Positions 3,197-64,000 of a stretch of 64,000 nucleotides of DNA are shown one piece after another. The stretch's first letter is position 1. Every line of letters starts with the position of its first letter. Origin of the DNA: Bordetella parapertussis (GTDB lineage: Bacteria; Pseudomonadota; Gammaproteobacteria; Burkholderiales; SG8-41). Under the pieces are notes generated by a model that was given only the letters and a program-made list of their open reading frames with translations, was not told where the DNA came from and searched no databases. The stretch lies in the NCBI GenBank assembly GCA_945906935.1, contig CAMDSO010000004.1:7427-71426 (forward strand). The letters are read 5' to 3'. The translations under genes were made by a program, and so were the position numbers.

Positions 3197-4255
3197 ATGG
3201 AGCTGCGAGGGCTCAGACAGTCCTCGCCGACTGCCCCCGACACGGCTGCGCTGCTCGGCGGCTCTCAGGGGGAGGGAAAGGTTAAACCTCTAGTTTTTTC
3301 GTTGCTGGTGTTTATTGGCGCGCTGCATTGCTTTTGTAGCTCCATCGCGTTTGCAGCTACATATCCCGAACGCCCCCTAAGATTCCTGATCCCGTTTCCG
3401 CCCGGCGGTGGCGCCGATAATCTCGCGCGCATTGTCGCGGTGAATGCAGCTGAGTCGCTGGGCCAGCAGATCATCATCGACAACCGGGCGGGGGCGGGCG
3501 GCAATATCGCCGCCGAGACGGTGGCGAAGGCGGCGCCTGATGGTTATACCTTGCTGCAGTCAAATATTTCGCATGCCATCAGCGCCTCGTTGTATCGAAA
3601 CCTGAACTACGACCTGGCGCGCGATTTTGTCCACGTGACGCAGCTTGCATCGATTCCGTTCGCGCTGGCAACACATCCATCGCTGGGCGTTTCGACGGTG
3701 CGCGAACTGGTTGCAATGGTCAAGGCAAAGCCTGCGCAGTATGTCTATGCGTCGTCGGGCAACGGCGGGCCTAGTCACCTTGCAATGGAAATGTTCAAGA
3801 CGCTGAATGGCGTCGATATTCGCCACGTACCCTACAAGGGGGCTGCGGCGATTTCGACCGATCTCGTCGCCAATCAGGTGCAAATGAGTTTTTTTACCAC
3901 GGCCGGCCTTCTGCCCCTGATCAGTGGCGGGCGTGTCAGGCCGATTGCAATTGCGAGTGCCCGGCGTTCGGCTCTGGTGCCCGACCTGGCGACCTTTGGC
4001 GAACAGGGTATGCCGGGATTTGAAGCGACGACGTGGTTCGGTGTCAGTCTGCCAAAAGGTTCGCCGGCAGAGGCCGTGAAGCGTTTGCATGCGGTGTTTA
4101 CGCAGGCATTGAAAGTGCCGGAGGTGCGCGAGCGGCTGACCGCCCAAGGGTTTGACATCGTCGCTAGTACACCATCGGACTTCGATGCCTTTGTGCGTGC
4201 TGAAATGCATCGCTGGAGCAAAGTCGTGAAGGAATCGCGTGCGACCGTTGATTGA
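3197..4255 (+). CDS. Bug/TctC-family substrate-binding protein
   Basis: Mature part ATYPERPLRFLIPFPPGGGAD, IDNRAGAGG, APDGYT, HVPYKGAAA. ORF 2906-4255 has a spurious N-terminal extension across intergenic repeats. The true start is uncertain: ATG 3197, or TTG/GTG near 3300 after GGAGGGAAAGG. Confidence 0.85.
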   Translation: MELRGLRQSSPTAPDTAALLGGSQGEGKVKPLVFSLLVFIGALHCFCSSIAFAATYPERPLRFLIPFPPGGGADNLARIVAVNAAESLGQQIIIDNRAGAGGNIAAETVAKAAPDGYTLLQSNISHAISASLYRNLNYDLARDFVHVTQLASIPFALATHPSLGVSTVRELVAMVKAKPAQYVYASSGNGGPSHLAMEMFKTLNGVDIRHVPYKGAAAISTDLVANQVQMSFFTTAGLLPLISGGRVRPIAIASARRSALVPDLATFGEQGMPGFEATTWFGVSLPKGSPAEAVKRLHAVFTQALKVPEVRERLTAQGFDIVASTPSDFDAFVRAEMHRWSKVVKESRATVD

Positions 4256-4274
4256 GAGCGCAGATACAAAATCG

Positions 4275-4315
4275 CCCTCGTCCCGCGACAGCGGGGGGAG
4301 GGCAGGGGTGAGGGG
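4275..4315 (+). repeat. G-rich hairpin repeat
   Basis: CCCTCGTCCCGCGACAGCGGGGGGAGGGCAGGGGTGAGGGG. Confidence 0.65.
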
Positions 4316-4352
4316 CGGGCGGTTGCATGGTGCGCAGTGCATCCACATTCTG

Positions 4353-5354
4353 ATGCGTTTCCTTGTGGGAGTGACAGCGGGCGTGTCCGGTTTGATTTCA
4401 AGACCACTGCTCGGCATCGCGTGTGTATCGCTGGCCGTGGCTAGCAGCGCACAAGACTATCCGACGCGCCCCATCCGTTATGTCGTGCCCTTCACCGCTG
4501 GCGGTGGCGGCGACATCATCATCCGCGAAGTGGCGCAGCGCCTGACGGCGCGCCTCGGCCAGACGGTGATTGTTGACAACCGCGCCGGTGCCGGCGGCAG
4601 TCTTGGTACTGAAATCGTCGCGCGTGCCGCGCCCGATGGTTATACCTTGCTGATGGCCAATGTGGCGCCGATGGCGATCAATGTTAGCGTGTATAAAAAA
4701 CTCAACTACGATCCACTGAGGGATTTCGCGCCGGTGACGACGCTGGCGTCCTTCCCCAATATACTGGTTTTGCATCCGTCGGTGCCGGCGCAAACGCTGC
4801 CGCAGTTGATCGCGCTGGCGCGGGCGAAACCGGGGCAGCTGACTTACGCTTCGGCCGGCGCCGGCAGCACGACGCATCTGGCGGCGGAGTTTTTCAAGAG
4901 CCGCGCCGGCGTTGATTTGATCCATGTGCCGTACAAGGGCGGCGGCGCTGCGCTTATTGATTTGGTGGCGGGGCAGGTCACACTTTATTTCAGCAGTCTG
5001 CCGGCGGCCCTGCCGATGGTACGCAGCAACCGCTTGCGCGCGCTGGGTGTGACGGGGCTCGCGCGCGCTATCGCTGCGCCTGATGTGCCGACGATTGCCG
5101 AATCGGGCTTTCCCGGTTTCGAAGCGGTGACCTGGATCGGTGCAGTAGCGCCGGCCGCTACGCCACCGGCGATTATCACGCGACTCAATAAGGAACTCGT
5201 CGAGATCATGCAGGCCGCCGACATGCGCGACAAGATGATTGCGCAGGGCGCCGAACCGATGACCAATACGCCCGAACATTTCGCCGTCTATATCAAAACC
5301 GAAACTGCCAAGTGGGCGGCAGTGGTGAAGCAGGCGGGAATTGCGGCGCAGTGA
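4353..5354 (+). CDS. Bug/TctC-family substrate-binding protein
   Basis: ATG 4353 gives signal peptide MRFLVGVTAGVSGL...ASSAQ, then DYPTRPIRYVVPFTAGGGGD, VDNRAGAGG, HVPYKGGGAA, NRLRALGV. Confidence 0.9.
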   Translation: MRFLVGVTAGVSGLISRPLLGIACVSLAVASSAQDYPTRPIRYVVPFTAGGGGDIIIREVAQRLTARLGQTVIVDNRAGAGGSLGTEIVARAAPDGYTLLMANVAPMAINVSVYKKLNYDPLRDFAPVTTLASFPNILVLHPSVPAQTLPQLIALARAKPGQLTYASAGAGSTTHLAAEFFKSRAGVDLIHVPYKGGGAALIDLVAGQVTLYFSSLPAALPMVRSNRLRALGVTGLARAIAAPDVPTIAESGFPGFEAVTWIGAVAPAATPPAIITRLNKELVEIMQAADMRDKMIAQGAEPMTNTPEHFAVYIKTETAKWAAVVKQAGIAAQ

Positions 5355-6253
5355 TGACCGGTACGCCGCGTGAAATCGAACTGGTGATCGGCTTTTCGCC
5401 GGGTAGCATGTCGGATGACATCGCGAAATGTTTGATTGATGCGATGCGTTCTGAATGCGGCATCGCGCTCACGGTCACCCGCCGGCCCGGGGCCAACGGC
5501 GTCAACGCCGCGCGTCACGTCGCGGCATGTGCTGCTGACGGCGCGACGCTGTTCATGGCAACCCTCGGCACGCATGCCATCGCACCGCTGCTCAATACGC
5601 CCGCACCTTATGACCCGCTGCGTGATTTCGCAGCAGTCTCGCTGCTCACCCAATCGCCGATGCTGCTGGCCTGTCATCCGGCGCTGGGGGTGCGCTCGGT
5701 CGCTGATTTGATTGCGCGCGCGCGCGCTGAACCGCCGTTGACCTATGCGACCTCGGCGACTGGCGGTGCGCCGCATCTGGCCGCCGGGTTGTTCGAGTCC
5801 ATCACCGGTGTGCGTATGCGTCATGTGCGCTATGACGAGACCGAACGACTCTACCGCGATCTCGAAGCCGGCCGGGTGGATCTGAGCTTCAACAATATTG
5901 CCTCCATGTTGCCACGCTGCAAAGACGGCGGCTTGATTGCCCTGGGGGTGTCGACTGCCGCGCGCAGTGCCGCGGCGACTGAGTTACCGACGCTCGCCGA
6001 GGCCGGCGTATCGGGCTATGCGATGAGCAACTGGACCGGCATCGTCGCACCACCCGCTACGTCACCCGCAGTGACAGCGGCATTAAGCGAGGTGTTTGCC
6101 ACCGCATTGCGCGCGCCACCTGTCAGCGCATGGTTGAATGCACAGGGCGTCACCCCGCGCGGTAGCGCGCCAGGCGAACTGACGGACTTTATGCAGGCCG
6201 AAGGTGAACGCTGGCGCGCCGTGGTGGCGCGCATAACAGCGGCGAGGGTATGA
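5354..6253 (+). CDS. Divergent Bug/TctC-like protein without signal peptide
   Basis: ATG 5354 overlaps the upstream TGA (TGATG). It starts MTGTPREIELVIGFSPGSMSDD, directly at the position of the mature-protein motif. HVPYKG is degraded to HVRYDE. Family motifs retained: DPLRDFA, PTLAEAGVSGY. Confidence 0.75.
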   Translation: MTGTPREIELVIGFSPGSMSDDIAKCLIDAMRSECGIALTVTRRPGANGVNAARHVAACAADGATLFMATLGTHAIAPLLNTPAPYDPLRDFAAVSLLTQSPMLLACHPALGVRSVADLIARARAEPPLTYATSATGGAPHLAAGLFESITGVRMRHVRYDETERLYRDLEAGRVDLSFNNIASMLPRCKDGGLIALGVSTAARSAAATELPTLAEAGVSGYAMSNWTGIVAPPATSPAVTAALSEVFATALRAPPVSAWLNAQGVTPRGSAPGELTDFMQAEGERWRAVVARITAARV

Positions 6254-6293: not shown

Positions 6294-6316
6294 TGACGCT
6301 ATGACGCTATGACGCA
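6294..6316 (+). repeat. Tandem octamer TGACGCTA x3 (last copy TGACGCA)
   Basis: Read directly. It sits immediately upstream of, and overlapping, the first ATG of the selenoprotein candidate. Confidence 0.7.
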
Positions 6317-7946
6317 AAGGGAAATGACTATGAGTGACACGCAAATGGTTCTCGATCCGGTGGCGCCCGCCAGCGTGGCCGGTGACAGCGCGACTTTTCG
6401 TCCACTGGCAACACTGGCCGGCAAGGTCGTCGCTTTCATCGATAACTCGAAACCGAATTTCAGCTTGCTTGCCGACGATCTCGGCGAATTGCTGATGGCG
6501 AAATACGGGGTGGTGAAAATCGTCAGGCACCGCAAGCCGACCGCTTCGGTATCGGCCTCGCCGCAGGTGTTCGCCGATATCAAGCAGCAATGTGATCTGG
6601 TTATCACAGGCTCCGGCGACTGAGGGGGCTGCACGTCGTGGAGTGTCCACGACAGTGTAGAGGGCGCGAAGCAGGGTCTGAGTGCGCTGGTGGTGTGTTC
6701 GACTGCCTTTATTACGCTCGGTCGTTCGCAATTGCACGCGCTGGGTGGCGGTAGTTTGCCGATCGCCGTGATGCCGCATCCCTTTGGTGTGCGCACGCGC
6801 GCGCTGGTGCGTGAATTAGCGGAAACGCTGGTCGATGAGATTGTGCGTCTGGCCACCGGCGGCATCGATAAGACCGCGCAGGCGGTCAACGTCGGCAGTG
6901 CAATGATCACTGCTGCTGCGGTACTCGGCATGCCCAATGATTTGATCGCTTTCAATGAAGAATGTGAACGCCGCCGTTGGAGCGATGGCTTGCCGCTGAT
7001 TCCACCAACGGAATCGCGGGTCGAACAGATGCTGACCGGCACACAGCGCGCGCGGCACGCGGTAGTCGCCCGTGTGGCACCGGGTTTCGGCGAGGCGACT
7101 GTGGAACGCATCGCCATTAACGCCGTGATGGCCGGCTGCCGTGCAGAATATCTGCCGGTGTTGATGGCTGCGGTCGAGGCGGTAGCTGATCCGCGGTTCA
7201 ATATTCAGGGCATACAGGCGACCACCAATTCAGCGGCGCCGTGGATCATCGTCAACGGACCGTTGGCGACGCAACTGGGTTTTAACGCAGGACTTAATTG
7301 TCTGGGCCAGGGCACACGCGCCAACGCCACGCTGGGGCGCGCGCTGCGGCTTGTTCTACAAAACATCGGCGGTGCCTTGCCCGGTGAAATGGACAGGGCC
7401 ACGCACGGCCAGCCCGGCAAGTACAGCTTCTGCTGCGCCGAGAATGAAGCGGCCAGTCCGTGGACACCGCTGCATGCCGAGCGCGGTTTTGCGAATGATG
7501 AAAACGTCGTCACCGTGGTGGGTGCTGCGGGTACGTTAAATCTGAATTCGCATTCAAAAGACGCCGCCGATCTGCTGCGTGTGATCGCCGCCAGCATGAG
7601 CTATCCGACCAGCAACGACATGCACTTTGCCGGCGAACCCTGGCTGATTCTGTCGCCTGAGCACGCCGACGTGTTCGCACGTGGCGGCTACGACAAGGTC
7701 ACCCTCAAAGAGTCGATCTGGGCGCAGTCGAAGATGCCCGCTGCTCGTTTCGCGCGCAAGGATTACGATCGCGCCGAACACGCGCGTAGCAGCGAACTTG
7801 GCGGCTTTGCCGTGGATACGCTGGTGCCGATTTCACCGAGTCCGCGTGATATCGGCATCATCGTCGCCGGCGGCCCCGGCACCCACTCGGTCTATGTGCC
7901 AACTTTTGGACAGACGCGCGCGGTATCGCGTCGCATCGGCGCATGA
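6309..7946 (+). CDS. Candidate selenoprotein: U-G-x-C (UGSC/GrdB-like) N-terminal domain fused to an uncharacterised ~420-aa domain. TGA 6621-6623 is read as Sec.
   Basis: ORFs 6309-6623 and 6690-7946 share one frame and are separated only by TGA 6621-6623. Residues on both sides of the TGA (..ITGSGD-U-GGCTSWSVHDSVEGAKQGLSALVVCSTAF..) are homologous to the paralogue at 63684-64000(-). A SECIS-like hairpin begins 11 nt downstream. The likely start is ATG 6330 (after AGGGAA) or ATG 6309. Confidence 0.6.
6624..6660 (+). promoter_or_regulatory. Putative bacterial SECIS element
   Basis: Upper helix GTCGTGGA/TCCACGAC (6635-6642 / 6646-6653) with GUG apical loop. A lower helix spans 6629-6634 / 6555-equivalent 6655-6660 with bulged A6654. 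There is an 11-nt spacer after the UGA. Loop G and U fall at +23/+24 from the U of UGA. Confidence 0.6.
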
Positions 7947-8899
7947 TGACGCGCCTGTTGTGTGCGCTGGCTTTGGTGTTGCCGGTGGTCGCCGCGTCGG
8001 CTGCGGAATATCCCGAGCGTGCAGTACGGGTGATCGTGACCTTTCCGGCCGGGGGCGGCACCGACATCGTTGCGCGCATGGTGTTTCAAAAAGTTGCCGA
8101 GCGCAGCGGCGCGACCTTCGTAATCGATAACCGCGGCGGTGCGGGCGGCACCATCGGTACCGATCTGGCGGCGAAAGCAGCACCCGATGGTTATACGATC
8201 GTGGTGGTCAGCGGTAGCCACACGATTAATCCAGCGCTCTACAAGAAGCTGCCGTTCGACAGTGTGCGCGATTTCGCGCCAGTGGCGATGCTGGTGACCG
8301 GCCCCGGTCTGCTGGTCGTGCATCCGTCGCTGCCGGCGCGCAATGTGCGCGAATTGATTGCGCTGGCGCGTAGTCAGCGTGGTGGCCTGCTCTATGCCTC
8401 GGCGGGCAACGGCACGCCGCCGCATCTGGCTGCTGAACTCTTTAAGCTGATGACTGCCACGCAGATCGCGCATGTTCCCTACAAAGGTAATGCGCAGGCG
8501 ATGACCGATCTGATCGCCGGGCAGATCGCTTTGTCATTTCCGACCATCCCGTCGGCCTTGCCGCATGTGCAAACGGGCAAGCTGCGCGCCATGGGTGTGA
8601 CCAGTGCAAAACGCGTTGGCGCGCTGCCGGAGATTCCGGCGATTGCTGAAACGGTGACGGGTTACGACGGCAGTGCGTGGTATGGCGTGCTCGCCCCCGC
8701 CGGCACGCCGGCCGCCATCGTCACACGCCTGCATACGGAGTTAATGACGGCACTGCGTACACCCGATCTCAAAGACAAACTGGTTTCGCAGGGCCTCGAG
8801 CCGGCGTCGTATATGCCGGAAGAGTTTTCCGCACTGATCGTCAGCGAACTCGCCAAGTGGGCGAAGGTGGTAGCGGCTGCGGGTGTCAAAAACGAATAG
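7943..8899 (+). CDS. Bug/TctC-family substrate-binding protein
   Basis: ATGA start/stop overlap with the upstream gene (7943-7946). AAEYPERAVRVIVTFPAGGGTD, IDNRGGAGG, HVPYKGNAQA, GKLRAMGV. Confidence 0.9.
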   Translation: MMTRLLCALALVLPVVAASAAEYPERAVRVIVTFPAGGGTDIVARMVFQKVAERSGATFVIDNRGGAGGTIGTDLAAKAAPDGYTIVVVSGSHTINPALYKKLPFDSVRDFAPVAMLVTGPGLLVVHPSLPARNVRELIALARSQRGGLLYASAGNGTPPHLAAELFKLMTATQIAHVPYKGNAQAMTDLIAGQIALSFPTIPSALPHVQTGKLRAMGVTSAKRVGALPEIPAIAETVTGYDGSAWYGVLAPAGTPAAIVTRLHTELMTALRTPDLKDKLVSQGLEPASYMPEEFSALIVSELAKWAKVVAAAGVKNE

Positions 8900-9847: not shown

Positions 9848-10810
9848 ATGCATAAAAAAATTATTTGCGCCGCGCTTTGGACAGTGACGGTGACTTACGG
9901 CCCTGCCATTGCGCAGGAATATCCGACCAAACCGATTCGCTACATCGTGCCCTTTGGTGCCGGCGGACCGACCGACACGCAAGCGCGCTGGGTCGCGCAA
10001 AAACTCAATGCAGCCTTCGGCCAGACGGTGATTGTTGATAACCGGCCGGCGGCCGGCGGCGTGCCGGGCACTGCGGCGGTGGCGAAGGCGGCCCCCGACG
10101 GCTACACGCTGCTGGCCGGTAATCCGGGCCCGTTGACGGTGGCGCCGGCGATTTCGCTGAACGTGCCCTATGACCCGCTGCGTGATTTCACGCCAGTGAC
10201 GCTGGTGGCGAAAAGCCCCAGCGTGCTGATCGTGCATCCGGCGCTACCGGCAAAAAACGTCAGGGAGTTCGTCGCGCTCGCCAAAGCGCGTCCGGGTAAA
10301 CTCAACTACGGCACGCCGGGGGTGGGCACCGTCGGCCATCTTTCGACCGAGGCTTTCGCGCATCTCACCGGCATCAATGTCATGCACGTGCCCTATAAGG
10401 GCGGTGTGAGCCAGTACACGATAGAACTGATTTCCGGTTACATTGATTTCGCTTCGCTGCAACTCTTTAACGTCGCGCCCATGGTTAAGCAGGGCAAGCT
10501 GCGCGCCCTCGGTATCACCTCGCGCGAGCGCTCGCCGGCGATGCCGGAGCTGGCGACCTTCAACGAGCAGGGTGTGAAATTCGAGAACTACAATTGGAAC
10601 GGTGTGCTGCTGCCGGCGAAAACGCCGCCGGCGATCGTGGCGCGGATCTACGGTGTGCTGGCCGCCGCGATCAAGGAAAACCGCGAGCTTTTTACCGGGC
10701 AGGGGCAGGAGCCTGGCGGCGAGAACAGCGAGCAATTCAGCGAGTTTTTGCGTGCGGAAATCGAGCGCTATGAAAAAGTCGCACGGGCTGCGAATATTCC
10801 AAAACAATAA
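9848..10810 (+). CDS. Bug/TctC-family substrate-binding protein
   Basis: Signal peptide, AQEYPTKPIRYIVPFGAGGPTD, VDNRPAAGG, HVPYKGGVSQ, GKLRALGI. Confidence 0.9.
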   Translation: MHKKIICAALWTVTVTYGPAIAQEYPTKPIRYIVPFGAGGPTDTQARWVAQKLNAAFGQTVIVDNRPAAGGVPGTAAVAKAAPDGYTLLAGNPGPLTVAPAISLNVPYDPLRDFTPVTLVAKSPSVLIVHPALPAKNVREFVALAKARPGKLNYGTPGVGTVGHLSTEAFAHLTGINVMHVPYKGGVSQYTIELISGYIDFASLQLFNVAPMVKQGKLRALGITSRERSPAMPELATFNEQGVKFENYNWNGVLLPAKTPPAIVARIYGVLAAAIKENRELFTGQGQEPGGENSEQFSEFLRAEIERYEKVARAANIPKQ

Positions 10811-44448: not shown

Positions 44449-44677
44449 ATGACGGCGTTGAACGCCGTACCGAGCTCACCCCGCACGATTGGCCGCAACC
44501 TAATCACCGGTTGGCGCGAGCACAGCGAAACCCGTCTACTTTTCGGTTCGATGGCGCCGCCCCGCAATGTGCGGTAAAAAGCCATTTCCCGGCGTGCAAA
44601 AAAACGGAGCCAACGGTGATTTCCCGCCGACTCCACCCACAAAAAGCCAACGCCATTTTCAGGAGAGGAAGAAGACC

Positions 44678-46153
44678 ATGAACGCAAATATTCTTATCGT
44701 TGCCGCCCGCGCGCTGGCGCTCGCCGGCATCACCTTGATACTGGCAACTCCGGCGCAGGCGCAAAGCACCGCCGTCGAAGCGCTGCAAAAGGCGCGCACG
44801 GTTGAACGCCTTGCCGAGGGCATGGCGGTCGAGAAAAAAGGTGAAGCGCCGGGCTTCGTGCTCGATCCCGCGTGGCCGCAGCCGCTGCCGAACAATTGGG
44901 TGATCGGTGACGTTGGCGGCATTGCCGTCGATAAGCATGACCAGGTCTGGGTGTATCACCGCCCGCGTTCGGTCGGCTCGCAAGATAGCGGCATGCAGGG
45001 CGCGGCCGGCAAAGACGCGAAAGGCAATCCGATTAGCGCGCTCGGTCATCCGCGGCCCAACGGTCAGATCAACGGCTGCTGCGATGCCGCGCCGTCGATC
45101 CTGGTGTTCAACACCGCCGGAAAATTATTGAATGCTTGGGGCGGCCCTGCGGACAAGGATTTTCTGAAAACCAAATGCCGCGAGGCCGACGGCTGCTTCT
45201 GGCCGGCGCGCGAGCACGGCATCTACGTCGATCACAATGATTTTGTTTATATCGCCGGCAATGGTCAGGCGCGCGCGTTCTACGGTCAGTATCCCTGGGC
45301 GCCGAAATTCGGCAACGATTCGCATATTTTGAAATTCAAGGCCGATGGCACCTTCGTCTTTCAGATCGGCACCGCCGGCGCCAAAGGCCCCAACAGCAAC
45401 GATACCAACGGCGGTGTGAACGGCACGCCCGAGCCCTACTGGCCGGCCGACATGGTGGTCGATGCGAAGACCAACCTGATGTACATCGCCGACGGTTACG
45501 GCAACCGCCGCGTGCTGATCGTTGACGCGGGCACCGGCAAATACGTCGGCCACTTCGGCGCTTACGGGCAGAACCCGGTGGTCGGTGAAAACGCCACCGG
45601 TCAGGCCTACGGCGCCTCCTGGCACGATGACTTCAAGGCCGGCAATATGAAACCGAAGTTCTTCCGCAGTCCGCTGCACTGCGCGCGGCTCGCCAACGAC
45701 GGCCTGCTCTACGCCTGCGATCGCGGCAACAACCGCGTGCAGGTTTTCAAGGCGGCTGAAGCGGGTAAGCCCTGTTCTAATGCCGACGGTGAAGTCGGTA
45801 AATGCGGCTTCGTCGGCGAGCTCGCCGTCGCGCCGCAATCGATCGGCGGCACCTCGGGCACGGTCAATTTCTCAACCGATGCCAAACAAAGCTGCATGTA
45901 CGTCGCCGACCTTGTCAACGACGTCATCTACGTCGTCAACCGCCAGAACATGACTGAACTCACGCGCGTCGGCAGCGGTGGCCGTCAGGCTGGCCAGTTC
46001 CATTGGCCGCACGTGGTTGCCAACGATACCAACGGCAATATGTATGTCGGCGAAGTCGATGGCGCAGCGCGTATCCAGCGCTTCCTGCGCTATGGCGCGA
46101 CCGGGTGCAGCGGGACCGGTAGCGCGGAGGTGGGGCGGTATTTGGTGAAGTAA
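44678..46153 (+). CDS. Secreted NHL-repeat / six-bladed beta-propeller protein
   Basis: ATG 44678 after AGGAGAGG, with a signal peptide. Repeated blades: IAVDKHDQVWVYHR, YIADGYGNRRVLIVD, YACDRGNNRVQVFK, YVADLVNDVIYVVN, YVGEVDGAARIQRF. Confidence 0.65.
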   Translation: MNANILIVAARALALAGITLILATPAQAQSTAVEALQKARTVERLAEGMAVEKKGEAPGFVLDPAWPQPLPNNWVIGDVGGIAVDKHDQVWVYHRPRSVGSQDSGMQGAAGKDAKGNPISALGHPRPNGQINGCCDAAPSILVFNTAGKLLNAWGGPADKDFLKTKCREADGCFWPAREHGIYVDHNDFVYIAGNGQARAFYGQYPWAPKFGNDSHILKFKADGTFVFQIGTAGAKGPNSNDTNGGVNGTPEPYWPADMVVDAKTNLMYIADGYGNRRVLIVDAGTGKYVGHFGAYGQNPVVGENATGQAYGASWHDDFKAGNMKPKFFRSPLHCARLANDGLLYACDRGNNRVQVFKAAEAGKPCSNADGEVGKCGFVGELAVAPQSIGGTSGTVNFSTDAKQSCMYVADLVNDVIYVVNRQNMTELTRVGSGGRQAGQFHWPHVVANDTNGNMYVGEVDGAARIQRFLRYGATGCSGTGSAEVGRYLVK

Positions 46154-62571: not shown

Positions 62572-63687
62572 TCAGCCTTGCCTGAAATCCTGTACCGATT
62601 TTGCGAGCGCGCCGTCGCGTGTTTTAAGGGCACGTGTCACCGCCTGCGTGGCGCCAAAGGTGTGTATATAGGCGGAGTGTTTGCCGGCGCCGCCGATGAC
62701 AACGACGATCAAATCCTGCGCGCGCTGTATCATCGGCACCAGGGCGTCGAGTGGCGCGGTGGCAAAGCGGTCGGCGATCTTGACGCGCAAACGGCGCTCG
62801 ATGTTTTCTTTGGAAAATTTTCCTAGCGGCAGCTGGCCGTGCGCCTGCAGAAATTTTTTTACATCCATCTTCGACAGACCGTCCTGGGCCACGGTCTTCG
62901 CGTGTTCGGGCCCGAATACGGCGACCGGCTGCGCTTCGTAGCAGGGATCGTTCGATCCGGCATCCATCATGGTGCCGGCAATGGTGGTGAGGATACCCTC
63001 GGCGTTAAGGCTTTCATGATCATTGACGTTGTGCGGACACTCCGCACCGACCACCGTGACGGTGCTCGCTTCGCGCGGAAAGCCGCGCTCGACGTGCAGC
63101 GGTTCCCACGGGCTTTCATCTTCATTTTCGGCGACGAAGTAGCAGTATTTGGCCGGCGAACCGAAAGTCGACATATCCCCGGTTTTTGGGATGGCGCCGC
63201 CAATGTTGACCAGTGCGAGACGAATGGCGCGGCCGATCGTCGCATTGCTCTGCGTGCCGGGGCCGAAGGCGTTGTGCCCGCCATTGATACCGAGTTCTTT
63301 GATTACCGGGCCGTTGACGATCACCAGCGGCGCGCACATATGCGTGGTCGCCTGGATGCCATAGAGATTGAAGGGCTCCTCGCACATCGCCTCGATGGCG
63401 AGCATGAAGAGCGGAAAATATTCGGGCCGGCAGCCGGCCATCACCGCATTGGCGGCGAGACGCAGCGGCGTGGCCTCGCCCCAGCGCGGTGGAATCTTCG
63501 CGATGGGTTCATCCCAAGGCCGGTCGCAATAGGCCAGCATTTTTTCAACGCGCGCCTCGGTTGGTGGCACGATCGGCAGACCGTCGGTCCAGCCACGCTC
63601 GAGATAGAGCGCGTTGATTGCTTCGAAATCATCCTCGGCGTCGATGCTGGCGCCGTCGTTCTTCAGCAGGTCGTTGAGATGGCTCAC
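62572..63687 (-). CDS. Uncharacterised partner protein, homologous to the C-terminal domain of the 6309-7946 fusion
   Basis: GTG 63687 overlaps the upstream TGA (GTGA). It shares GWTDGLPIVPPTEARVEKML, AANAVMAGCRPEY, YGIQATT, SNATIGRAIRLALVNIGGA, SPWEPLHVERGF and VVIGGAGKHS with residues ~190-545 of the fusion. Confidence 0.8.
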   Translation of the reverse strand: MSHLNDLLKNDGASIDAEDDFEAINALYLERGWTDGLPIVPPTEARVEKMLAYCDRPWDEPIAKIPPRWGEATPLRLAANAVMAGCRPEYFPLFMLAIEAMCEEPFNLYGIQATTHMCAPLVIVNGPVIKELGINGGHNAFGPGTQSNATIGRAIRLALVNIGGAIPKTGDMSTFGSPAKYCYFVAENEDESPWEPLHVERGFPREASTVTVVGAECPHNVNDHESLNAEGILTTIAGTMMDAGSNDPCYEAQPVAVFGPEHAKTVAQDGLSKMDVKKFLQAHGQLPLGKFSKENIERRLRVKIADRFATAPLDALVPMIQRAQDLIVVVIGGAGKHSAYIHTFGATQAVTRALKTRDGALAKSVQDFRQG

Positions 63688-64000
63688 GACAGATGGTCCT
63701 TGATAAGTTTGATCACCTGCGGAATGGCGACGAGCGCGCGGCCCTGCACTTGTTCGAGCGACAAACCGCCGAGCGGATGCGCGATCATCACCAACGGCAG
63801 CGTTGGTACACCAAGCACGCGCGCCTGCGTCGAGCCGAGTGTGCGGAAAGGATCGGAGCAGATCACCGCGGCGAGCACGCCACGTTTATGCATCTGGGTC
63901 ATGTCGTGGACACTCCACGACGTGCAGGCCCCTCAATCGGCCATCGCGCAGATGACCACGTCGGCTTCCGTCGACAATTGGTCCAGCACCTCCTGCGTCG
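63684..64000 (-). CDS. Candidate U-G-x-C selenoprotein (partial; the 5' end lies beyond the window). TGA 63933-63935 is read as Sec.
   Basis: The minus frame reads ..TQEVLDQLSTEADVVICAMAD-U-GACTSWSVHDMTQMHKRGVLAAVICSDPFRTLG..VMIAHPLGG.. This is collinear with the 6309 locus across the TGA. ORF 63684-63902 is only the post-UGA part. Confidence 0.6.
63903..63932 (-). promoter_or_regulatory. Putative bacterial SECIS element (second copy)
   Basis: On the minus strand, GTCGTGGAGTGTCCACGAC (63921-63903) begins exactly 11 nt after the UGA. It is identical to the hairpin at 6635-6653. Confidence 0.6.

Follow-up and report, generated by a model that had tools for sequence, protein, structure and literature searches.

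A 64,000-nt stretch of a Bordetella parapertussis assembly (GCA_945906935.1, contig CAMDSO010000004.1; this whole stretch is referred to as the window) carries two diverged paralogous genes that share a 25-nt block without a single synonymous difference, and the locus raises the question of what keeps the block identical while the codons around it diverge. Each block is very probably a bacterial selenocysteine insertion sequence (SECIS), an mRNA hairpin within the coding region of a gene of the UGSC selenoprotein family, which would be bound by SelB and direct the insertion of selenocysteine (Sec) at an in-frame UGA codon. This reading draws on the structure and position of the hairpin, the conservation of its synonymous sites across the family, the compensatory changes in its stem and the loss of constraint in relatives with cysteine (Cys) in place of Sec.

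Two exact copies of the block, CTGCACGTCGTGGAGTGTCCACGAC, are present in the window, at 6629-6653 (+) and 63903-63927 (-), as first reported; no further copy is found in the window at up to 3 mismatches, and 100 shuffles gave 0 matches. The longest exact run between the copies is 26 nt (6629-6654), and the next longest between the two gene regions is 17 nt. Both blocks begin 5 nt past an in-frame TGA and, counting from this TGA, 36 of 37 nt agree between the copies (TGAGGGG[G/C]CTGCACGTCGTGGAGTGTCCACGACA). In each copy the block encodes C-T-S-W-S-V-H-D, with the same codon at all seven degenerate positions, whereas outside the block the codon for a shared amino acid is the same in just 10 of 27 cases in the UGSC part and in 76 of 146 cases in the partner part (described below). 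The original prediction put the identity of the paralogues at about 45-50%, a value that holds for the partner domain (45% amino acid identity) but is too high for the UGSC parts, which are 38-40% identical in amino acids and 52% identical in nucleotides. The block was also said to lie exactly over a hairpin. This applies to the 19 nt at 6635-6653 but not to the first 6 nt (C-TGC-AC), which belong to the codons for Cys and Thr in the UxxC-T motif and owe their conservation to the protein (the Sec forms have TGC:TGT at 107:16 and the Cys forms at 48:12).

The genes that carry the blocks are recognized as UGSC homologs by domain searches. Copy 1 is a UGSC selenoprotein domain (approximately residues 1-185, with the Sec codon at 105) that is fused in frame to a partner domain of approximately 360 aa, a fusion also noted in the close relatives P0004, P0006, P0007, P0010 and P0021. 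Copy 2 is a stand-alone gene that extends beyond the edge of the window; its complete form (181 codons) is taken from an identical metagenome contig (L187, 9459-10007). Against Pfam PF24696 (UGSC; gathering cut-off of 25 bits), copy 1 scores 137.9 bits and copy 2 scores 103.9 bits as the partial and 145 bits as the full-length protein, all above threshold. With U entered as C in both queries, the equivalog model NF041046 of NCBIfam (cut-off of 125 bits) is matched by full-length copy 2 at 127.5 bits, above the cut-off, and by the fused copy 1 at 103.8 bits, below it. A search of the PDB sequences with full-length copy 2 gave no match at E values up to 1 and 10. The two copies have U-G-G-C and U-G-A-C in place of the eponymous U-G-S-C motif; the UxxC redox motif is kept. 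Ser occupies the third position of U-G-x-C in 91% of the listed Sec-type relatives, of which Gly and Ala are the minority variants. Cys-type homologs have TGY at the aligned Sec codon, as exemplified by GSGDCGGCTSWS in the database matches P0003, P0009, P0013 and P0014 and by 60 metagenome loci. Public gene calls cut UGSC at the TGA (e.g., into 98 and 72 aa at 9459-10004 of L187), and the database matches P0001-P0025 include N-terminal fragments that end in GSGD and C-terminal fragments that start past the TGA, while the full-length relatives have Cys at this position. Mis-annotation of the UGSC family by split or half-kept open reading frames (ORFs) is thus systematic in the metagenome catalogues.

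The hairpin itself is compact and stable. The 19-mer composed of GUCGUGG, AGUGU and CCACGAC has a minimum free energy (MFE) of -11.1 kcal/mol (z = -3.7), a value reached by none of 200 shuffles, and 45-nt segments have MFE values of -20.9 kcal/mol (copy 1) and -16.2 kcal/mol (copy 2). RNAalifold finds a 7-bp stem with a 5-nt loop and MFE folding finds an 8-bp stem with a 3-nt loop, in that the A and the last U of the loop may form an eighth pair. Criteria for a bacterial SECIS are provided by the bSECIS consensus model, as quoted in a 2026 review (PMC13188914), which calls for: (i) an apical loop of 3-9 nt on an upper stem of 4-16 bp, (ii) a G at loop position 1 or 2 or both, in most cases with G or U as the next base (N1-G-[G/U]-N-N2, in which N1 and N2 are able to pair), (iii) a distance of 16-37 nt from the UGA to the apical loop, and (iv) an MFE of -7.5 kcal/mol or lower. 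Both copies have an in-frame UGA, a loop of 5 or 3 nt on a stem of 7 or 8 bp, the loop A-G-U-G-U with a flanking A and U that are able to pair, and a UGA-to-loop distance of 18 nt (11-nt spacer plus 7-nt 5' arm); the 19-mer and both 45-nt segments lie below the energy limit. The structure is also kept in evolution through conserved pairing and compensatory changes, with four pairs invariant and the sequences related. A covariance model of the family (R1), for which both sites were in the training set, scores 66.6 bits at copy 2 and 63.6 bits at copy 1, compared to 10.4 bits for the next best site of the window. In copy 1, a 6-bp lower stem is predicted to enclose the core hairpin; this stem is absent from copy 2 and its position is not conserved. 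Likewise, some outer pairs are predicted in most relatives at positions that are not conserved. A lower helix is absent from the RNAalifold consensus, and a conserved one is not claimed.

The Sec-type relatives were collected by a scan of one genome per species (185,579 species) with the codon-degenerate pattern D-U-G-x-C-T-S-W-S-x-x-D, in which all synonymous codons were allowed and codons +8 and +9 were free. The resulting set comprises at least 119 loci with at least 123 matches and 120 distinct sequences, and all counts refer to the matches listed. The hosts include Beta-, Gamma-, Delta- and Alphaproteobacteria, Actinomycetota, Chloroflexota, Bacillota (Neobacillus and Robertmurraya), Rokubacteria/Methylomirabilota, Nitrospinota, Acidobacteriota, Binatia and others. 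Throughout this set the orthologs are free of the synonymous variation that would disrupt the helix: at least six of seven stem pairs together with the loop GU are retained in 119 of 120 sequences, and GU is found at loop positions 2-3 in all 120. The exact 19-mer is present in 44 of the 120 listed sequences from many phyla, and the 24-mer TGCACGTCGTGGAGTGTCCACGAC is present in 41 of 123. Mean pairwise identity over 7140 pairs is 91% for the hairpin compared to 49.5% for 102 flanking nt. When followed along the gene, synonymous variation is minimal within the codons of the hairpin and high on both sides: codons +1 and +2 have third-position entropies of 1.65 and 1.56 bits, codons +4 to +10 of 0.83, 0.29, 0, 0, 0, 0.70 and 0.57 bits (+6 being the non-degenerate Trp), and codons +11 and +12 of 1.62 and 1.94 bits. 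Judged from this collection, the identity of the two paralogs is not special to them; they are identical in the block because each carries the modal sequence of the UGSC family, that is, the family-wide consensus of the predicted SECIS.

Two of the Sec-type loci merit separate mention. A Chloroflexi metagenome-assembled genome (L057, 3713-7511) has three Sec-type UGSC genes in approximately 4 kb, each with its own predicted SECIS. A bin assigned to the archaeon Candidatus Nitrosocosmicus sp. (L005) has a bacterial-style SECIS within the ORF and is of the type VVFAGSAD-U-GSCTSWSLHD, common to loci of Rokubacteria, Methylomirabilota and Dormiibacterota; its archaeal assignment is likely due to mis-binning.

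The Cys-type homologs serve as a control for the contribution of the protein sequence. The Cys-type set was retrieved from metagenome contigs with the same pattern, in which TGY replaced TGA, and includes 67 loci with 60 distinct family members, 57 of which have full flanks; the Sec and Cys sets are thus drawn from different collections. Codon +7 ends in T (AGT/TGT) in 123 of 123 Sec types compared to 4 of 60 Cys types, which use AGC/TGC instead and never AGT for this Ser. Codon +8 ends in C in all 123 Sec types but in 27 of 60 Cys types (GTG in 18 and GTC in 17). Similarly, codon +5 is TCG in 115 of 123 Sec types compared to 31 of 60 Cys types, which also use TCC, TCA, TCT and AGC, and codon +4 is ACG in 104 of 123 Sec types compared to 27 of 60 Cys types, in which ACC is about as frequent as ACG. 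The AGT codon, which supplies the U of the loop, opposes the G+C-rich codon preference. At the level of structure, at least six of seven stem pairs with the loop GU are found in 119 of 120 Sec types compared to 1 of 57 Cys types (the loop GU alone is found in 3 of 57), and the mean MFE of the 19-mer is -10.4 kcal/mol for Sec types and -4.5 kcal/mol for Cys types. Since Cys types with the same peptide motif vary freely at the synonymous sites of the hairpin, the constraint is, on the evidence of codon use in the two sets, tied to the UGA and not to the protein or to codon bias. A subset of Cys loci (L122, L139, L143, L156, L158, L176 and similar) keep all seven pairs, with AGC replacing AGU in the loop. 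To judge by these sequences, the full-stem Cys hairpins look like relics of a recent Sec-to-Cys replacement.

Pairing in the stem was evaluated in an alignment of 122 sequences, for which the RNAalifold consensus is the 7-bp stem with the 5-nt loop. When this structure is imposed, 97.3% of cells are paired, compared to 18-51% after a shift of the 3' partner by 1-3 columns. Pair 24-36 is GC in 99 sequences, GU in 16, AU in 6 and CG in 1, and is broken in none; pair 21-39 is GC in 101, AU in 7 and GU in 2, and is broken in 12. Double-sided changes account for 14 cells compared to 2.3 +/- 1.4 in shuffles, a count that none of 500 shuffles attains. Variants with A-U are spread over several lineages that are not related to one another, among them Bacillota, Actinomycetota, Acidobacteriota, Chloroflexota and Betaproteobacteria. 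In one locus (L119), a change of TCG to TCC is offset by a change of CAC to CAG that replaces His with Gln. A divergent Sec-type paralog with the motif U-G-S-C-S-S-G-S-V-L-D ((-), near 7128 of the reverse strand of L118), which lies outside the search pattern, has a hairpin whose register and A-GUG-U loop are the same, with G-C to C-G and U-A to G-U changes in the stem. The same subgroup motif is noted at a contig end of L055 (-). Together, the L118 and L055 sequences suggest a second UGSC subgroup beyond the search pattern. With the family-wide frozen synonymous sites, the compensatory changes and the Cys-type control, the original prediction that selection on RNA structure is superimposed on coding, as expected for a SECIS, is supported.

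The mechanism proposed for the element is modelled on Sec decoding in E. coli and Moorella. Starting 11 nt past the UGA, 19 nt of the mRNA are predicted to fold into the 7-bp GUCGUGG/CCACGAC stem, capped by the A-G-U-G-U loop. SelB, in complex with GTP and Sec-tRNA(Sec), would bind the G-U of the loop and the upper stem and, with the UGA in the ribosomal A site, would deliver Sec rather than allow termination. The 11-nt spacer would set the hairpin at the mRNA entrance, and the product is predicted to be a U-x-x-C redox protein. As the same nucleotides encode T-S-W-S-[V/I/L]-H-D, the segment bears a double constraint of RNA and peptide that keeps the synonymous sites frozen.

Three other explanations of the block were weighed. 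Conservation of the C-T-S-W-S-V-H-D peptide combined with a high-G+C codon bias, with no role for the RNA, is very improbable. While many Cys-type relatives likewise conserve CTSWS[V/L]HD, which is thus under protein-level selection, and while TGC, CAC and GAC are favoured in both the Sec and Cys sets, Cys types with the same amino acids use other codons, and AGT/TGT and a C-ending codon +8 are found in every one of the 123 Sec types. In addition, AGT runs contrary to the G+C-rich bias, the constraint is bounded by the edges of the hairpin, and among the compensatory changes is that of L119, made at the expense of an amino acid. The Cys-type control excludes codon bias with protein conservation alone. 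The copying of a short tract between the paralogs by recent gene conversion or patch repair is suggested by the exact 26-nt run in genes that are otherwise approximately 52% identical in nucleotides, and is assigned a minimal probability: the tract is just 26 nt, the next run is 17 nt, and the flanking codons differ both synonymously and non-synonymously up to the edges (the flanks are 52-56% identical), such that the identity does not extend well past the hairpin. The 19-mer and the 24-mer also recur in Sec genes of unrelated phyla, and the identity of the two copies is therefore expected without exchange between them. Gene conversion was rejected on tract length, diverged flanks and cross-phylum occurrence.

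The third explanation takes the TGA as the true stop of a split gene or pseudogene and the hairpin as a terminator, attenuator, pause site or DNA-level palindromic site for protein binding. Automatic gene callers do split the gene at the TGA, and no Sec machinery was seen in the tRNA scan of the window or among its listed genes; yet this explanation is hardly credible, as the frame runs on past the TGA, free of further stops, in both copies and in 123 listed relatives with conserved residues downstream, the very codon of the TGA is TGY in the Cys homologs, the hairpin lacks a T-run after it, its offset is fixed at 11 nt, the constraint vanishes when TGA is replaced by TGY, and UGSC is a curated selenoprotein family.

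Several points count against the identification of the blocks as SECIS elements or temper its support. A search of Rfam (release 15) over the whole window found no family at gathering score, and none was found at E values up to 10 over 6560-6720. A tRNA/tmRNA scan of the window found nothing, and the window is thus without a tRNA-Sec gene (selC); the gene listings, which covered parts of the window, showed none of selA, selB and selD. The TCN-TGG portion of the 5' arm is fixed by the search pattern and by the protein motif, and four of the seven stem pairs are invariant and, thus, uninformative on pairing. The S-W...H-D peptide is inherently partly self-complementary at the nucleotide level, and 7 of 57 Cys forms keep seven of seven stem pairs. 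The sequences are related, and the Fisher p values (nominal 1e-20 to 1e-43) and the shuffle statistics therefore overstate independence. The coordinates of the two copies, their predicted SECIS elements and their partner regions are collected in the following table.

Table 1. Coordinates of the UGSC genes, predicted SECIS elements and partner regions in the window.
Feature	Position	Strand	Details
Copy 1, read-through ORF	6309..7946	+	545 codons plus stop; ORFs 6309-6623 and 6690-7946 share one frame, with only the TGA between them
Copy 1, in-frame UGA, predicted Sec codon	6621..6623	+	motif G-S-G-D-U-G-G-C
Copy 1, spacer from UGA to hairpin	6624..6634	+	11 nt (codons G, G and C and the first two bases of T)
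Copy 1, predicted lower stem (copy 1 only)	6629..6660	+	CUGCAC 6629-6634 pairs with GUGUAG 6655-6660; bulged A 6654; encloses the core hairpin
Copy 1, predicted SECIS core hairpin	6635..6653	+	5' arm GUCGUGG 6635-6641; loop AGUGU 6642-6646 (G6643, U6644); 3' arm CCACGAC 6647-6653
Copy 1, fused partner domain	~6951-7946	+	
Copy 2, partner gene	62572..63687	-	371 aa; start overlaps the UGSC stop (GTGA, 63687-63684)
Copy 2, UGSC gene	63684..64000	-	5' end beyond the window edge; stop codon 63686-63684
Copy 2, predicted SECIS core hairpin	63903..63921	-	5' arm 63921-63915; loop AGUGU 63914-63910; 3' arm 63909-63903; starts 11 nt past the UGA
Copy 2, in-frame UGA, predicted Sec codon	63933..63935	-	motif A-M-A-D-U-G-A-C

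The partner of UGSC is a stand-alone protein in copy 2, with 45% amino acid identity to the C-terminal domain of copy 1. Homologs of the partner adjoin UGSC in nearly all loci: 93 of the 123 listed Sec matches have the partner downstream, in the same orientation and at most 1.5 kb away (typically 250-450 nt past the UGA), and many of the remaining loci in which a partner was found have it directly upstream of UGSC. The partner family includes 5379 clusters at 50% identity (E values up to 1e-3), many with lengths that fit fusions, and more than 7900 sequences are retrieved by a word-indexed search. The partner has no match in Pfam (E values up to 10), in NCBIfam or among the PDB sequences (E values up to 1 and 10). 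A reasonably confident AlphaFold2 model of the partner has a mean local confidence (pLDDT) of 79.8 and a predicted template modelling (TM) score of 0.82, and the best Foldseek match of this model in the PDB has a TM score of 0.26. The folds of class I fumarate hydratase and of the Toblerone-fold amide hydrolases were considered for the partner and rejected, with TM scores of 0.26 or lower. This protein is probably the functional partner of the UGSC selenoprotein.

A broader proposal, which is put forward tentatively and is on balance doubtful, is that a dual-coding lock of RNA and peptide holds the 19-nt sequence itself, and not only its structure, near-invariant over at least 10 phyla, that the Cys types carry relic hairpins, and that UGSC may be the selenium subunit of a widespread two-component or fused enzyme with the 371-aa protein as its obligate partner.

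The wider neighbourhood is typical of Burkholderiales. The rest of the window is a metabolic region of an uncultured Burkholderiales-like bacterium and is very rich in genes for periplasmic binding proteins of the TctC/Bug type (e.g., 4239-5354, 5312-6253, 7943-8899 and 9848-10810), as are the metagenome contigs L187, L190 and L191, and these genes are interspersed with those of amidohydrolases, coenzyme A (CoA)-transferases and pyrroloquinoline quinone (PQQ) dehydrogenases. A TctC gene directly adjoins each UGSC module, and these neighbouring transporters suggest that the substrate may be a carboxylate. No record was found for the protein encoded at 44567-46150.

For annotation, both genes of the window are to be read as selenoproteins of approximately 181 and 545 residues and not as ORFs split at the UGA. 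The comparison across the family shows cleanly how constraints on RNA and on protein overlap. The signature of the UGSC SECIS (UGA, 11 nt, GUCGUGG-NGUNU-CCAYGAC) could become an Rfam-style model. The current understanding of Sec decoding is unchanged.

The UGSC family and its SECIS have been known since 2007-2008, and the element described here is a canonical bacterial SECIS in a known family. A UGSC-containing protein was listed in 2007 as a selenoprotein with 'strong predicted SECIS elements' (PMC1976440). In 2008, UGSC was found among the most abundant selenoprotein families of the Global Ocean Sampling data, where it has 255 Sec forms and 21 Cys homologs; the protein was described as having a UxxC motif and probably a thioredoxin-like fold, and as being fused to a conserved domain termed 'Unknown_1' (PMC2398784). 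The 2026 review lists the family under NF041046 (PMC13188914). What is new here are the quantified sharp limits of the RNA constraint and the contrast with the Cys forms. Compared to the UGSC family as modelled in NF041046 and PF24696, the genes of the window share the position of U-x-x-C and have Cys-type homologs, but differ in motif (U-G-G-C and U-G-A-C, not U-G-S-C) and in that copy 1 is a fusion protein below the NCBIfam cut-off. The 'Unknown_1' domain of the 2008 fusion may be the same as the partner domain of copy 1.

Selenoprotein B of glycine reductase (GrdB, TIGR01917) and PrdB of proline reductase are likewise UxxC selenoproteins that work with a partner subunit. The partial copy 2 (63684-63998 (-), residues 8-89) weakly matches the Sec region of TIGR01917 (E = 0.0079, 15 bits, model positions 333-408) at a score well under the cut-off of 602, and the GRDB family of Pfam is not matched by full-length copy 2 at E values up to 10. 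Homology to GrdB is thus not confirmed by Pfam and is kept as a lead, be it a remote relationship or a chance match; the partner protein is without similarity to the GrdE and PrdA families.

At the level of the RNA, the closest comparison is with the bSECIS model and with the SelB-bound elements of E. coli fdhF/fdnG and Moorella thermoacetica fdhA. The UGSC element is the same type of stem-loop, located within the ORF just 3' of the Sec UGA, with the same small loop, a G followed by a U at loop positions 2-3, an upper stem of 7-8 bp and a stable fold. In the minimal E. coli fdhF element, the upper hairpin is located 11 nt past the UGA and the upper stem has a bulged U. The UGSC hairpin, unlike that of fdhF, has no bulged U in its upper stem. 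It also stands out in that its sequence hardly varies from phylum to phylum, an effect of the conserved peptide that is encoded by the same bases.

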